From: a virus
UHGV virus genome: UHGV-0036582
Length of the DNA: 64,000 bases
Direction: 5' to 3' (one strand)
Under the pieces are notes generated by a model. That model was not told where the DNA came from. It did no database searches and saw only the letters and a list, made by a program, of their open reading frames with translations. Below, piece after piece: positions 6,549 to 55,836 of the stretch (positions are counted from its first letter, which is position 1; each line of letters opens with the position of its first letter). Made by a program: the position numbers and the translations under genes.

Positions 6549-7217
6549 ATGACCAAGATCTTTGTGGTTGGCGGCACAAAGGGCGGGCCTGGCAAATCCA
6601 CCGTTGCCCAGCAAATTGCCGTTTGCCTGAAAGTCAAAAAGAAGAAGAAGGTTTATATCACTGATATAGATATTCAGCGCACGACAACAAGCTGGTGTGA
6701 AGACCGTCGACAGAACGAAGACCTTGAGCTGATTCCTTTTGCATACGTTCAGGATGACATCATTAAGCACCTAAAATCGCTTCAGGGTAGAGCTGAGTTT
6801 GTAGTGGTAGATGCTGGTGGCTTTGACTCCGAAATTCAGCGACAAGCGATGCTGATGGCCGACGTTATCATTATCCCGCTGCGTCCTAAGCGTCGTGATT
6901 TGAAATCTTTACGTGACATCGATCCTATTATCGACAATGTTCGTAATGTAAACGATAAAGTGAAGGTCCGCGCGGTCATGAACCAGTGCCCGGCTTTGCC
7001 ATCACAAGTGTCTCGCATTTTGGCGGCTAAAGAGATTGTCGAGACGTTTGGCATCGAGTCTGCGCCAGTCAATTTATATAACCGCAACGTCTATGATGAT
7101 GCGGAAGAGTCTGGTCGTTCTATCTTTGAAATGACCGGTAGCGAGCGCGACAAAAAGGCGGAAGCCGAGTTTGAAGAATTTGTAGATTATCTGTTGAGTC
7201 TGGAGGAAGAAGAATAA
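6549..7217 (+). CDS. parA: ParA/MinD-family partition ATPase
   Basis: Deviant Walker A motif KGGPGKST in MTKIFVVGGTKGGPGKSTVAQQIA; 222 aa; followed by a small overlapping ORF as in type Ib partition operons. Confidence 0.8.
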   Translation: MTKIFVVGGTKGGPGKSTVAQQIAVCLKVKKKKKVYITDIDIQRTTTSWCEDRRQNEDLELIPFAYVQDDIIKHLKSLQGRAEFVVVDAGGFDSEIQRQAMLMADVIIIPLRPKRRDLKSLRDIDPIIDNVRNVNDKVKVRAVMNQCPALPSQVSRILAAKEIVETFGIESAPVNLYNRNVYDDAEESGRSIFEMTGSERDKKAEAEFEEFVDYLLSLEEEE

Positions 7218-7576
7218 TGTCCATGAAAATGGGTGACCTAGCAAAGCGCAAAGAGTCTGATGCACCGGCTAAGAACACAACTCCTTTGCGCCAACCAGTC
7301 AGACCACAGGGACGCCCGACTCGTGGCAAAGAGAAAATTAAAAGCCGCACAATGTCACTGGAGGACGAATACTTCGAACTGCTGGAGATGATGAAGTTCA
7401 TCCCTCGCTTCGAGAAGTTCACTCGTTCTGACGTGATTCGAGCAGCCATTTTCCATCTGGCAGAGAAGTCACCGCAGGAAATCGAGGACATCGTGAAATT
7501 GAATGAGGCGATCACCGCTGCCGATGTCACGATGCGTACCGATGAAATCAAACGAGAGTTGATGAAGAAAGGTTAA
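7217..7576 (+). CDS. Small DNA-binding partition partner, ribbon-helix-helix-like (ParG-like)
   Basis: 119 aa, start overlaps the parA stop; basic N-terminus; C-terminal segment RTMSLEDEYFELLEMMK...RSDVIRAAIFHLAEK has a strand-helix-helix pattern. Confidence 0.45.
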   Translation: MSMKMGDLAKRKESDAPAKNTTPLRQPVRPQGRPTRGKEKIKSRTMSLEDEYFELLEMMKFIPRFEKFTRSDVIRAAIFHLAEKSPQEIEDIVKLNEAITAADVTMRTDEIKRELMKKG

Positions 7577-7579
7577 AAA

Positions 7580-7614
7580 TCATGCATTGGCGTAATGTAC
7601 GCGCCAATGCATGA
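7580..7614. terminator. 13-bp inverted repeat between convergent genes, possible bidirectional terminator
   Basis: tcatgcattggcg / cgccaatgcatga arms with a 9-nt loop; no clear T-tract. Confidence 0.4.
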
Positions 7615-7628
7615 GTACAATGTCAGTT

Positions 7629-8396
7629 TTATGCCGCGCTAACACTATGTTCAGTCCTAACCACTCCAACCTTCACAAAAGGGCTACCGTAGCTTGGTGG
7701 CTTCTTGATTAATTTGCCAACATACAGTTTTCTAATATGCTCATCGGCTATTCTGCCAACAAATTCATAACGTTTTGTGTCGGGGCCAAGAGCTATATCC
7801 CTTGTAAAGTACTGCTGAGAACCGGCTTTGACCCAGCATTCAATCTGATAAACTTCCATTATCAGCCCACCATATGTAGCGTAGGCATATTTGAGATTCT
7901 CGTCTCTTGGAACCTTTGCCCATACGCCACGCGTAGCTTCATATAATGCCAGAGCGGACATTCCTGACTTGTAGGTGCTGTTTAGCAGGAAGGCAAGACC
8001 GGCGTGCTCAGGAGCAATTTCAGTTTCCTCTTGCAGCACTAAGTGATGGTAGGCGTCCAGTGATATTCTGCCCATCATGGAACCACTTCCTCGTACCTTA
8101 TTCGTAAGCTCTCCGACCCCCATAAGGTCGATGCATGTCGCCTCAACAAGTTTGGCTGTGGTTTCATCCATACCATGACGAAGTATATCTATGCCTAATT
8201 TTTTATTAGCCAAAAGTTCTTTGATCCGCATGGATTTGGGAGAGTCATCGGGATACTTGATGTGATCGAGACAACGAGTCGATTTGCCTTTTCCTATGTA
8301 AAACGGTCTTTTCATCTTGTCTTCTGTATCATAGAGACAGTAAACATAGTATTTAGCCTTATCCAATGATCTCGCGTATACCGATAAATCGTCCAT
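7629..8396 (-). CDS. GIY-YIG nuclease-domain protein with an uncharacterised C-terminal domain
   Basis: N-terminus YYVYCLYDTEDKMKRPFYIGKGKSTRCLDH matches the GIY...YIG...R...H pattern; about 150 aa of unrecognised C-terminal sequence. Confidence 0.6.
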   Translation of the reverse strand: MDDLSVYARSLDKAKYYVYCLYDTEDKMKRPFYIGKGKSTRCLDHIKYPDDSPKSMRIKELLANKKLGIDILRHGMDETTAKLVEATCIDLMGVGELTNKVRGSGSMMGRISLDAYHHLVLQEETEIAPEHAGLAFLLNSTYKSGMSALALYEATRGVWAKVPRDENLKYAYATYGGLIMEVYQIECWVKAGSQQYFTRDIALGPDTKRYEFVGRIADEHIRKLYVGKLIKKPPSYGSPFVKVGVVRTEHSVSAA

Positions 8397-8504
8397 TATT
8401 GCATCTCTTAGCTACTGACTAATGCGTTCTATTTTACACATAAGTTTTTAATCAATTTAACAGGCTCAAAGTGTAGAGCTTCTGGGCGTCTAAGACGACA
8501 AGTT

Positions 8505-8562
8505 ATGCCTGCTTCTGTATATATTTAATAAGTTACTTATTATTTATATATACAGAAGCAGG
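8505..8562. repeat. Perfect 17-bp inverted repeat (cctgcttctgtatatat) around an AT-rich loop; a near-identical copy lies at 55689-55750
   Basis: Arms cctgcttctgtatatat / atatatacagaagcagg; the loop contains ataagttacttat, related to the genome-wide palindromic motif. Confidence 0.7.
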
Positions 8563-8671
8563 TCTTTTAAAAAGACACCCACCAGAACAACTCCCTTCCG
8601 TTTCCACTTCCAAAAACTGTCACCAGTCGCTATCATCCGCTCATTGTGATAAGTAAGTAACTACCTACCAG

Positions 8672-16566: not shown

Positions 16567-17342
16567 AAACATCTCGATAAGTATTTACTTACTTATCTTT
16601 TATGTATAAGATGACTTTGTTTTCGTTGAGACGCGACTGTTTGAACTTAAATACAAGTGCAAACGAAGAAGTCTATCTGGCAGTAGCCTAATAAGCCAAA
16701 CACCAGCGAGGTCAGTTTCCAGCCTCGTTACCGAAATGGGACACACTGAGCGAGTGTGATTGCAGAACGCAGGAGGGAACATTCATGTTCCCTCCGATGA
16801 AGTAACAGAATGGGCGGTTGGTATATTTTCAACTCCATATGACTCCCGGATTCTTAGCCACTGACCGCCCATCCTGTTACGTCATTTTGTTCAATTATGT
16901 CGTTTATACTGGGTTAAAAAGCGGCGACGTAGCCCGGCTGGTATGGTTAGCCAGCACACAACGTTGAGGCCATTACATTTTTATCAATTCTAAGGTTCTA
17001 TTCACAGAGATACCGGCGAGCGTTGATATGTAACATGTTGGGCAAACATTCAATCGGAGTAGTGGCCTCAACGTTGTGAAGACGGGATTGTTGTGTAGGT
17101 TTAACCACTGTTGCCATTGGTGCCTGTTTTCACAACAAATGATTCCATACATCACATTGTATAAATTACAAAGTAGGTGCTGTCCTCAGAAACATCATCT
17201 ACTTAAAGATTTTGCCTTCTATTGAGCGAAGTCGAAAACGTCTGGCACTAACGGAAAGTGCAAGTAGCGGTGCGTTTCCTGGCAGAAACTAACACCGCCG
17301 CGATTGGCACTGTTGAGTAATAAATACTGGCAGTGCTGAATT

Positions 17343-17901: not shown

Positions 17902-18054
17902 ACACAGCGTTGAGCGGTTTGGCCTTTTAATCAACTCGATTAAGACTCCGCTAACATAAACCAGACCGCTCAACGCTGTGATAGACAATTACGGCAGACG
18001 TTCTTAACCATAGCTTGCTAACATCCTAGCAACACTTTTTTCAGCGCAAAATTC

Positions 18055-19805: not shown

Positions 19806-19855
19806 CCCACCAAACTCACTCCCGTTTCCCTTAAAATTCAAAAAACAACGTCAAA

Positions 19856-19886
19856 ATGATTCCATACCTACTATGTATGGAATCAT
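19856..19886. promoter_or_regulatory. Candidate tyrosine-recombinase core site: 12-bp perfect inverted repeats around a 7-bp spacer
   Basis: atgattccatac-ctactat-gtatggaatcat, about 100 bp upstream of the recombinase gene; geometry resembles lox/dif-type sites. Confidence 0.4.
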
Positions 19887-19985
19887 TGCTGAAAATGAGT
19901 TACTTTTACTCTTGATCCTATAAGAATCTATGCCTAATATACTGTTTACTTATACAGTGCATCGGCGTAACTCGGTGATTGTCAT

Positions 19986-33304: not shown

Positions 33305-33505
33305 ATGATCAAAATCTATCTATTGGCAGTAGCCACAGGCCTTTCAGTGGCTCTCATCTACGGTTTACTGGTTCCGTCGCTGATTTCTACCAAGAGTGAT
33401 TTAGCCGTCATGTTTGGAGTTATCGTTGGTTTTGGTGCTCCTGTAATCGGTCTTATTGCTGGTCGTAAGTTTATCAACTCATTAATCAAAGCAAAGGGGA
33501 AATAA
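33305..33505 (+). CDS. Small two-TM membrane protein
   Basis: 66 aa; helices IYLLAVATGLSVALIYGLLV and VMFGVIVGFGAPVIGLIAG; immediately upstream of the SPFH lipoprotein gene. Confidence 0.5.
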   Translation: MIKIYLLAVATGLSVALIYGLLVPSLISTKSDLAVMFGVIVGFGAPVIGLIAGRKFINSLIKAKGK

Positions 33506-53372: not shown

Positions 53373-53930
53373 ATGACAACGATTGTTGCAGGCATCGATA
53401 TCGAGTCTACGGGACTGGATTTCCTTGCTGGTCATAAAATTATTGAAATCGCAATTACCCGCTATGAACTGGAGACACAGAGACATATTGATAGTCTGGA
53501 GATGCGTTTTAACCCTCGCAGAAACATAGATCCGAAAGCTCAAGCCGTTCATGGCATTTCATTGGAACAGCTCGCAGCTGAACCTTTGTTGTCAAATCAT
53601 GCCAGCGAAATTGGCGCTTATATGGGGGCATGTAGTGTGTGGGTTGCTCATAACGGCGAAGCATTTGATATACCATTTATTCGACACGAGTTTTCAGGGT
53701 ATGGAGTAAGACTGCCAGAAGTTCCTGTTATAGATACTATGTTATCGGGATTGTGGGCCACAGAAGACGGTAAACGTCCCCGCCTTGAAGAGTTGGCCTT
53801 CTCTCTTGGCTATATATACGATCATGCCAAAGCACATAGTGCCTTATATGACACAAACTTAATGATGCAATGCTTCTTTAAGGCACGTAATAAGTACGGA
53901 TTTTTTAAATTACCCTCTGAAATTGTGTAA
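53373..53930 (+). CDS. DnaQ-like 3'-5' exonuclease (DEDDh family), candidate proofreading subunit
   Basis: Exo I GIDIESTGL, Exo II WVAHNGEAFDIPF, Exo III HSALYD. Confidence 0.75.
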   Translation: MTTIVAGIDIESTGLDFLAGHKIIEIAITRYELETQRHIDSLEMRFNPRRNIDPKAQAVHGISLEQLAAEPLLSNHASEIGAYMGACSVWVAHNGEAFDIPFIRHEFSGYGVRLPEVPVIDTMLSGLWATEDGKRPRLEELAFSLGYIYDHAKAHSALYDTNLMMQCFFKARNKYGFFKLPSEIV

Positions 53931-53934
53931 AACA

Positions 53935-53972
53935 AAAGCCTACTTTAAAAAGTTTAAAGTAGGCTTTCTTTT
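53935..53972 (+). terminator. Rho-independent terminator
   Basis: aaagcctactttaaa-aag-tttaaagtaggcttt then ctttt. Confidence 0.7.
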
Positions 53973-54088: not shown

Positions 54089-54898
54089 ATGAGTTCGGTT
54101 GAAAATGTAATGACAAATGATGATCTGGACGAGCTGACAGCCATGTTGCAATCACTTGATGAACCAGTAAAAAAAGCTGCACAGGTTGAAAATACTGATG
54201 ATATTGACGATCTGCTGCTCGGCCTAGATGCTGGCGTAGCCATGAGTTCTGATGATGTTGCCGAAGAACTGTTCAATGAAGAAAAAGCAGGTGATTTCAG
54301 CTCTGCTTTAAATGAGTTGGAGTTAGCGCATGAGCCTATAAACGTAATTAACGCTGAAAGTGTTGAAGCTGCCGAAAACGAGCCAGAACAATTGGGATTT
54401 ATTGAGGTTGAAGAGTGTGTTGAGGTTAATGATGAATTAAAAGTTCAACAGTCAAATGATAGCAATACAAATAAAAAAGCTCGTACTGCAAGAGGTCCTC
54501 GTTTTACTTTAAGTGATAAAGATGATTCGTTTTTCAATAAAGCGGGCTTAGAAAAAGATATTTTCTTAGACGCTTACGATAACGCGCCTGTCAAAGCAAA
54601 GGATAAGATATTAAACCTTCTTAATTGGTTTAGCGGAGGTCCAGATATTAGTGTTTACACGGTAATTTCCATGAGACACCTTCTCACAGAAAAGAAGGCT
54701 ACAAGTAATAGTATTAAGATTGCTTTAATGAGCAATCCAGAAAAACCGTATCCGCTTAATACTGCGTCAACTCAGGCTGGGCAAATGATGGCTGTATTTC
54801 CAGCGACAGGAATTGCCGTTAGAGACGGTGGAAATCTAACATTGAACGAAGAATCACCGATCGTTAAGAAGTTTGTCGCGGAGTACACTATTGGATGA
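54089..54898 (+). CDS. Highly acidic protein of unknown function
   Basis: 269 aa; N-terminal half dominated by Asp/Glu (DDLDELTAMLQSLDE...DDIDDLLLGLD...); lies upstream of the Dam-like methyltransferase. Confidence 0.5.
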   Translation: MSSVENVMTNDDLDELTAMLQSLDEPVKKAAQVENTDDIDDLLLGLDAGVAMSSDDVAEELFNEEKAGDFSSALNELELAHEPINVINAESVEAAENEPEQLGFIEVEECVEVNDELKVQQSNDSNTNKKARTARGPRFTLSDKDDSFFNKAGLEKDIFLDAYDNAPVKAKDKILNLLNWFSGGPDISVYTVISMRHLLTEKKATSNSIKIALMSNPEKPYPLNTASTQAGQMMAVFPATGIAVRDGGNLTLNEESPIVKKFVAEYTIG

Positions 54899-55081
54899 CG
54901 TTCCCCTACTTAAAATAAAGCCCATAGAGAGCTTTATAGTACTGGGTAAGCCAATCACATACCCAGCACTACAAAAACGCGCCAGAGAGCTTCTCGTTTG
55001 CATTTCTGGCGCGTTTTATTTGATTGCCAGACATAAAATCAAATGCAAAAATAGGTATATACTTACCTATCGAGAAAGAAG

Positions 55082-55675
55082 ATGATTGCAGCCGAAAAAA
55101 TCAAACAGCGAAAGCGCGACAACTCTCTTCGTGACCTCTGGAGAACACCTGACTGGCTGTTTTCTGCCATTCAACGTTATCTTGGAGTGACATTTGATGT
55201 TGACGTTGCCTGCAACAAGGACAATGCAAAGCTGCCTAATTTCATAGGCGTTGAGCGTGATGCTTTGAAATCTGAATGGGGACAGCCAGGTACAATTGCC
55301 TTCCTAAATCCACCCTACTCCAAAATCTCCCCCTGGATTGATGCGGCTATACGTGAGCAGGCTCGCGGAGTTACAACAGTGATGCTAATTCCTCAATCCC
55401 TAGATACAAAGTGGTATGAGCGTGCAACAGAGTGTGCGAATGAGACGATTATTCTGTCTGGTGGCCGCGTAGCGTTTGTCGAGCCTGACGTAAATCTGGG
55501 TCAGGTAGAAGTAAACATCAACCCAGGTGGCAGTATGCTCGTTGTTTTTCGAGGATTCTGTCAGGACGCTGGGCACTCTATAAGCAAGATCCCTTTGGAC
55601 GTCATGAAAAGTCTGGGAGGGTATGATCCTGCGAATGTGATCAGGAAAAAAAGACCATCAAAGAAGGCTGCTTAG
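55082..55675 (+). CDS. Phage Dam-type DNA N6-adenine methyltransferase
   Basis: Catalytic motif NPPY in IAFLNPPYSKISPWIDAAIRE; 197 aa. Confidence 0.7.
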   Translation: MIAAEKIKQRKRDNSLRDLWRTPDWLFSAIQRYLGVTFDVDVACNKDNAKLPNFIGVERDALKSEWGQPGTIAFLNPPYSKISPWIDAAIREQARGVTTVMLIPQSLDTKWYERATECANETIILSGGRVAFVEPDVNLGQVEVNINPGGSMLVVFRGFCQDAGHSISKIPLDVMKSLGGYDPANVIRKKRPSKKAA

Positions 55676-55688
55676 TTTGTTCTGGCGT

Positions 55689-55750
55689 CTGTAATTAGCC
55701 TGCTTCTGTATATATAAATAACTACATATTAATTATTAATATACGGAAGC
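55689..55750. repeat. Second copy of the 17-bp-arm inverted repeat (agcctgcttctgtatat / atatacggaagcaggct)
   Basis: Arms share the core cctgcttctgtatat with the element at 8505-8562; one arm mismatch; AT-rich loop. Confidence 0.65.
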
Positions 55751-55836
55751 AGGCTGTTTTGTATCAGAGACTCCAGACCTGAACATCACTACAGAATCCA
55801 CTAGAACCCCTTCCCAGACGCTTTAAAATCGATTTT

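Follow-up and report, generated by a model that had tools for sequence, protein, structure and literature searches.

The question raised by this locus is why one and the same hairpin should stand at two distant positions in a stretch of viral DNA, and what it does at either place. The stretch, referred to below as the window, comprises the 64,000 nucleotides analysed from the virus genome UHGV-0036582. The explanation that we favour, with somewhat better than even confidence, is that the hairpin is a factor-independent terminator of the + strand, or an insulator, between blocks of genes. Several properties of the element go beyond what this explanation needs, and they are weighed below against other readings.

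The hairpin family and its genomic setting

The presence of the same hairpin at two distant loci had been claimed in a first-pass annotation and was borne out. All 17 arm pairs are complementary at site 1, and 16 of the 17 at site 2, where the sole mismatched pair is T·G (U·G on the + strand). The position originally given for site 2 (55689-55750) was shifted by about 5-8 nt, and the arms, which had been called identical, are not strictly so (Table 1). The element is about 55 nt long and combines a 17-bp GC-clamped stem, whose arms read CCTGCTTC ... GAAGCAGG, with an upper stem of 7-8 bp; the interior is AT-only at site 1, where it has a sub-stem of its own, and AT-rich at site 2. A shuffle test of the arm core CCTGCTTCTGTATAT rules out a chance likeness of the two hairpins: with up to two mismatches allowed, the core occurs four times in the window (two sites on two strands), 0.15 occurrences are expected from shuffles, and four were reached in 0 of 100 shuffles. 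In a wider alignment the similarity between site 1 and site 2 takes in the AT-rich interior along with the rest of the ~55 nt and goes no further than the hairpin edges. The predicted folds of the + strand have energies of -29.4 kcal/mol (site 1) and -31.2 kcal/mol (site 2), corresponding to z = -8.0 and -5.8 against shuffles.

Table 1. Features at and around the two hairpin copies, in window positions.
Feature	Position	Strand	Remarks
GIY-YIG domain gene	7629..8396	-	transcribed away from site 1; lineage-specific cargo
Left bracket TTCTGGG	8480..8486		upstream of site 1
Site-1 hairpin	8508..8562	+	arms 8508-8524 / 8546-8562, 17/17 complementary, 21 nt between
U-rich tail TCTTTT	8563..8568	+ only	directly 3' of site-1 stem
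Right bracket CCAGAAC	8582..8588		downstream of site 1
Promoter-like TTCCAA-17 nt-TATCAT	8608..8636	+	ahead of gene starting 8681 (ATG); by eye
Phage Dam methyltransferase gene (PF05869)	55082..55675	+	last gene ahead of site 2
Left bracket TCTGG	55681..55685		upstream of site 2
Site-2 hairpin	55697..55755	+	arms 55697-55713 / 55739-55755, 16/17, 25 nt between
U-rich tail GTTTTGTAT	55756..55764	+ only	3' of site-2 stem; also given as (C)TGTTTTGT
Right bracket CCAGACC	55773..55779		downstream of site 2; second copy CCCAGAC 55813-55819

Escherichia phages CMS-2020a and PhiR41_1 match the window region at 98% identity, and Cyrano and Salmonella phage SSU5 are related to it; judged by this kinship in sequence, the window is part of an SSU5-type phage-plasmid. 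Scanning complete genomes and relatives for the arms, as the first-pass annotation had suggested, uncovered further copies, three per complete genome: at 13435, 45582 and 75115 in PhiR41_1 and at 33458, 78304 and 103263 in SSU5. A covariance model of the hairpin, built from 20 distinct copies, likewise finds exactly two copies in the window and three per complete genome. The runner-up scores are 16 bits in the window and 23 bits in a relative, with nothing else above 24 bits, and neither the model nor a word search detects a third or degenerate copy within the window. The third copy (site 3) lies in the part of the genome outside it.

A first 15-mer scan of IMG/VR viral contigs was unspecific, with a paired hairpin in 40 of 120 loci, and all 40 of these hairpins map to the same three syntenic intergenic sites. 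The family is found in 798 plasmid records from seven genera (Klebsiella, Escherichia, Enterobacter, Yersinia, Salmonella, Citrobacter, and Cronobacter), the plasmids being almost all non-mobilizable and about 100-115 kb in size. It is present in 260 of 5,426 complete E. coli genomes (~5%); SSU5-type plasmids account for 1,386 of the 1,390 places in E. coli; dispersed copies were not seen, and chromosomes carry virtually none. Among relatives we saw no presence/absence polymorphism, empty sites or new insertion sites, and no duplicated flanks (target-site duplications) around the hairpin. The three syntenic sites and the near-exclusive distribution on plasmids mark the hairpin as a constant part of a single replicon lineage rather than a dispersed repeat. 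The arm sequence occurs in no paper of the literature searched, and no Rfam 15 family scores above its gathering cut-off, the matches being generic and resembling miRNA precursors (best 27 bits against a cut-off of 45.6).

Each copy stands where one of three large + strand gene blocks meets the next. Site 1 separates the partition genes and cargo from replication, site 2 separates DNA metabolism from accessory genes, and site 3 separates a ParB-like/ATPase operon from the packaging and structural genes. The proposal that the hairpins sit at module boundaries therefore stands in general, and it stands for site 2, which does follow the Dam methyltransferase gene. It fails for site 1 as originally worded: the GIY-YIG gene that site 1 was said to follow is on the minus strand, its start codon is 112 nt from the hairpin, and site 1 thus lies upstream of that start codon, between divergent genes. 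The hairpin begins 21-27 nt 3' of a + strand stop codon at window site 2, at site 1 of Cyrano and SSU5, and at site 3 of PhiR41_1 and SSU5, and the distance from hairpin to next start codon is 106-120 nt at every site and in every lineage. In particular, site 2 starts 21-23 nt past the Dam stop and 107 nt ahead of a conserved 76-codon gene. Site 1 is 118 nt ahead of the first gene of the replication block (a helicase gene is next), and in relatives it lies 22-24 nt past a + strand gene (CYRAN_30, after the parA operon, in Cyrano; SSU5_037 in SSU5). Site 3 lies 25 nt past an 88-codon gene and 115-117 nt ahead of the small terminase gene.

To the left of site 1 the window loses its homology to Cyrano and SSU5, either right at the edge of the hairpin or within about 30 nt of it. 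Window positions 7629-8507 form a variable cargo region between the partition genes and site 1, which holds the minus strand GIY-YIG gene here, a different + strand gene in Cyrano and four genes in SSU5. A perfect 13-bp inverted repeat with a 9-nt loop (TCATGCATTGGCG / CGCCAATGCATGA, 7580-7614) occupies the gap where the ParA-partner gene (ending at 7576) and the GIY-YIG gene (ending at 7629) converge; it is likely a bidirectional terminator unrelated to the hairpin family.

Other inverted repeats were noted elsewhere in the window. Two of them (53930-53972 and 54974-55017) resemble terminators but have no sequence relation to the hairpin family; they come after the epsilon-exonuclease gene and the ORF at 54089-54898. 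Two more (16797-16885 and 17903-17980) have arms of 20-22 nt that are 91-95% complementary and 38-45 nt apart. A near-perfect 16-bp palindrome (AATGATTCCATACCTA / TATGTATGGAATCATT, 19855-19887) is, by mapping to PhiR41_1, near an integrase-like gene.

Conservation, interior flips and the flanking bracket

The arms are 93-100% identical across lineages, compared with 77-83% for adjacent coding DNA, 64-83% for the spacer, and 63-96% for the hairpin interior. The inner stem varies at only two positions among 34 distinct extended copies. The variable stem pair is U·G in 21 copies, U-A in six, C-G in three, and C·A in four, and the closing pair is A-U in 15, G-C in seven, G·U in five, and A·C in seven.

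At window site 1 the interior reads as the exact reverse complement of that found in relatives whose flanks are 97-98% identical. The interior is flipped in five of the 34 copies, and at the variable pair two of these have C·A, three have U-A and none has U·G; the U·G copies are all unflipped (21/21), with one orientation relative to the + strand. This pattern is expected if a hairpin is inverted and the pair is then restored on the + strand. The flips with later pair restoration show that the palindrome forms intrastrand hairpins in DNA. The interior flips in this hairpin, which are newly described here, are a mutational by-product and not a function. In the E. coli group the site-1 and site-3 hairpins share one sequence over their full 55 nt, whereas the Klebsiella/Salmonella-type relatives have site-1 copies with a different interior; this suggests that at least one conversion between hairpin sites may have occurred.

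The hairpins are flanked at all three sites by a short bracket. TCTGG(G) is found 18-27 nt upstream in 19 of 24 distinct contexts, and CCAGA(C/A) 15-29 nt downstream in 20 of 24, against a background of 5-6% per side and 0.25% for both sides together. Even several site-1 left flanks that are otherwise unrelated carry the motif. In the minimum-energy folds of the three E. coli-group sites it forms an outer helix, giving a structure of 100-115 nt that encloses the U tract (z = -6.8 to -9.7). Complementarity of the flanks reaches significance at site 3 (z = -2.9 to -4.1) and, in SSU5, at site 2 (z = -6.0), and not at the two window copies (z = -1.2 and -0.6). A co-varying RNA helix was rejected as an account of the bracket, the pairing being significant at some sites only and swaps of flanks between lineages making no difference; the bracket is better treated as a conserved motif than as a co-varying helix. 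The motif CCCAGAC is not enriched genome-wide (five occurrences per strand in 108 kb), and its occurrences cluster near the hairpins.

The spacers beyond the hairpins were also compared. Those after sites 1 and 2 share, by eye only, CCAGAAC...CCCTTCC...CCAGNCGCT. A duplicated cassette of terminator and promoter was rejected, the alignments of the window spacers not being significant against shuffles (p = 0.18, 0.08, and 0.26). The promoter-like sequence after site 1 is conserved across divergent relatives; a consensus promoter scan does not call it, and its match to the -35 element is weak. Between site 3 and the small terminase gene, PhiR41_1 (L122 5637-5753) carries, just ahead of the terminase start, two direct repeats AAACAAGTTG(G/T)TT and a short GC-rich hairpin AGAGCGC-N6-GCGCTCT followed by GTGTGTTTT. 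These repeats and this hairpin look like a leader attenuator or a terminase-binding region.

Termination and the competing explanations

Both window copies have the hallmarks of an intrinsic terminator, a stable GC-rich stem-loop and a U-rich tract directly 3' of it on the + strand. In the 9 nt after the site-1 stem the mean number of T residues is 6.1 on the + strand (range 5-7) and 3.9 on the minus strand; after the site-2 stem the means are 5.5 (mostly 5-6) and 3.3, respectively. Since the U-rich tails are on the + strand only, the window copies look like + strand terminators. A bidirectional terminator had been proposed, and of this proposal the termination is supported, by the tails and by expression data from a relative, and the bidirectionality is contradicted by the U-poor minus strand. 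A co-directional gene lies upstream at site 2, and at site 1 in Cyrano and SSU5, and is absent at window site 1. There the hairpin, next to the divergent GIY-YIG gene and with no + strand gene ahead of it, can only be an insulator or a leftover.

The expression data are published gene-level RNA-seq values for Cyrano in strain LF82 (PMC9928086, supplementary table). For CYRAN_30, upstream of site 1, the log2 values are 5.8, 5.74, 8.61, 8.97, 10.42, 10.15, 9.85, 9.78, 9.97, and 10.14, and for CYRAN_31, downstream of it, they are 2.32, 2.88, 2.90, 2.91, 2.56, 2.65, 3.06, 2.99, 3.91, and 4.19 (PMC9928086, supplementary table). Expression thus falls about 8- to 230-fold across site 1 in 10 of 10 samples (PMC9928086). 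The 193-bp gap between the two genes contains no other terminator candidate. The Cyrano genes that flank sites 2 and 3 are both near background in lysogeny in the LF82 RNA-seq, so that a drop is readable at site 1 only. We infer that the drop at Cyrano site 1 arises because transcription terminates at the hairpin, and that the other two sites act alike. The Klebsiella p2 paper offers no expression values.

The same LF82 table contains an observation of a different kind. CYRAN_43 (Cyrano OV696614.1 40268-40822, minus strand), near the integrase and putative repressor genes, is by far the top Cyrano transcript, at about 720-fold over the prophage background in lysogeny, and may be a non-coding or regulatory RNA.

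If the hairpin terminates transcription, the 17-bp GC-clamped stem and the AT-rich upper stem would fold into a very stable hairpin in the + strand transcript, and at sites 1 and 2 the U-rich tail directly 3' of it would halt read-through from block to block. The upstream mRNA would probably keep a protective 3' hairpin. The palindrome also acts as a DNA hairpin in replication; its interior has been inverted several times, including at window site 1, and at least one copy of the hairpin was apparently overwritten by another.

A plain terminator does not account for everything observed. The sequence of the arms is conserved beyond what pairing needs, and invariant arms are at odds with a plain terminator because terminators need pairing, not a set sequence. 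Simple termination explains neither the bracket nor the near-fixed distance to the next start codon. Moreover, a U tract is lacking on the + strand of site 3 in both lineages (3-4 T in 9 nt), and one variant of site 2 (L082) has a poor one (2 T in 9 nt after the stem).

These properties would be explained if hairpin and bracket formed a sequence-specific block-boundary element through which a putative factor of the phage-plasmid switches the three blocks together, from the silent plasmid state to lytic expression. Such an element, which we consider unlikely, could work through regulated termination or antitermination, or through an operator or insulator complex, and it would account for the invariant arms, the bracket, the fixed distance of ~117 nt to the gene that opens each block, and the U-less hairpin at site 3. 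The more specific version, to which we give slightly less weight, is that the hairpin terminates in lysogeny and that a putative phage-plasmid protein, reading arms and bracket, relieves or imposes the block at the three junctions together. It draws on an arm sequence fixed beyond structural need, a bracket far above background and at regular distances, and a distance of ~106-120 nt from hairpin to start codon that is kept at three paralogous sites though their spacers are not significantly similar. It is also consistent with the retention of the site-3 hairpin without a U tract, and with the position of the copies at the head of three blocks that need silence in lysogeny and expression in the lytic cycle. 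However, no candidate for the factor was found, the small neighbouring genes belonging to families whose function is unknown; elsewhere in the genome, single arms that might be operator half-sites are not above expectation; and homogenisation between copies or genomes could mimic constraint on the sequence.

The conserved arms and bracket could instead be a candidate binding site in double-stranded DNA, that is, an operator, an architectural site or a dispersed centromere, occupied by a dimer or tetramer and perhaps extruded as a cruciform. An AT-only interior with GC clamps favours cruciform extrusion, the repeated interior flips show that the DNA forms hairpins in vivo, and site 1 is within about 1 kb of the parA operon. 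The phage-plasmid N15 has several dispersed centromere palindromes, which would be comparable. We nevertheless consider a DNA-level site improbable, as the U·G asymmetry and the U tracts on the + strand point to a role at the RNA level. For a centromere in particular, the sites used by small ParA proteins are usually arrays of short repeats beside the par operon, whereas two of the three hairpin copies are 30-46 kb away from it, and the ParA partner is not confirmed as a ribbon-helix-helix protein: the 119-aa product encoded after parA (7217-7576), which had been labelled ParG-like, lacks any Pfam match, and the PHROG to which it belongs is one of unknown function. At the RNA level, processing by RNase III or retroregulation, in which the predicted helix of ~25 bp, extended by the bracket in read-through RNA, would be cut by RNase III, has a similarly low probability in our view. 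Such cleavage would part the mRNAs of the blocks, as in T7, or make read-through RNA unstable, as at lambda sib. The predicted inner helix would be long enough by the criterion of at least 20 bp, and both the bracket-based outer helix in the folds of the E. coli-group sites and the significant flank complementarity at site 3 and SSU5 site 2 fit this proposal; the lack of significant complementarity at the two window copies and the lack of co-variation between lineages argue against it.

We attach very little probability to the remaining group of explanations, namely the footprint of a small (MITE-like) mobile element, a recombination site, or a packaging or replication signal. A palindrome with a TCTGG/CCAGA bracket could pass for an element with terminal repeats, and the variable cargo region adjoins site 1. 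The footprint of a mobile element, which had been among the original proposals, is rejected on distribution: the hairpin occupies only three fixed syntenic positions in seven genera, and the many dispersed copies, polymorphism and target-site duplications that characterise MITEs are not seen. As recombination sites, three direct repeats would cost the replicon a third of its genome. The thought of a packaging signal comes from the linear SSU5 record (NC_018843.1), which starts and ends inside the site-3 hairpin (L126 3258-3299, L124 1-23), at a point about 115 nt ahead of the small terminase gene. The record ends might hint at a physical end of the DNA, but palindromes are common break points of assemblies, and an assembly break at the palindrome is the simpler explanation, given a T4/P22-like large terminase and three copies per genome. 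For the same reasons a cos site of the lambda type at site 3 is disfavoured, TerL being of the Terminase_6N/Terminase_3 type. Two further classes were rejected on their motifs. Integron attC sites have RYYYAAC ... GTTRRRY cores at the base of the stem and an integron integrase near, and the arms CCTGCTTC ... GAAGCAGG lack the GTTRRRY core; a LexA box (CTGT-N8-ACAG) does not fit either, CTGT (8515-8518) and ACAG (8552-8555) being 33 nt apart.

Relation to known systems and implications

Like the intrinsic terminators of enterobacteria and their phages, the preferred + strand terminator has a GC-rich stem base, a U-rich tail on the coding strand (sites 1 and 2), a position about 20-25 nt past a stop codon and, in a relative, a drop in expression across it. 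It differs from them in its unusually long stem (17 bp plus the upper stem of 7-8 bp), in the recurrence of one sequence at three loci across genera, and in the bracket, the fixed distance to the gene and the U-less site 3. The boxB hairpins of lambda nutL and nutR, and the putL and putR sites of HK022, are similar in that the same conserved hairpin sequence heads separate blocks of a temperate phage. Lambda N acts on identical boxB hairpins at nutL and nutR. However, boxB is a hairpin of 15 nt that does not itself terminate, and we identified no boxA-like element, N-like protein or upstream promoter here; the likeness is one of logic only.

With the RNase III sites of T7 and with lambda sib the hairpins share the repetition of similar long hairpins between phage gene blocks and, with sib, an extended structure that is possible in read-through RNA only; they differ in that their outer helix shows no co-variation and is weak in the two window copies. 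The REP/BIME and ERIC elements are also imperfect palindromes in transcribed intergenic DNA that can stabilise upstream mRNA, but they are set apart by distribution, with tens to hundreds of chromosomal copies against three fixed copies in one plasmid lineage. The interior flips resemble the micro-inversions of hairpin loops known from non-coding chloroplast DNA and from quasipalindrome template switching in E. coli, in that the interior is the exact reverse complement in relatives that are 97-98% identical and the U·G pair changes with the flip as expected.

SSU5-type phage-plasmids occur commonly in clinical Enterobacteriaceae, and how their lytic genes are silenced during plasmid life is poorly understood. 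The hairpins at the three block junctions provide a testable handle on the transcriptional layout of these replicons and a landmark for their annotation, which also locates the variable cargo region left of site 1. A terminator between blocks is in itself ordinary, yet the sequence of this one is kept more tightly than a plain terminator needs. If it is true that a dedicated factor reads the arms, then this factor would be a simple genome-wide switch; if there is no such factor, then the hairpins would represent a well-conserved family of terminators.
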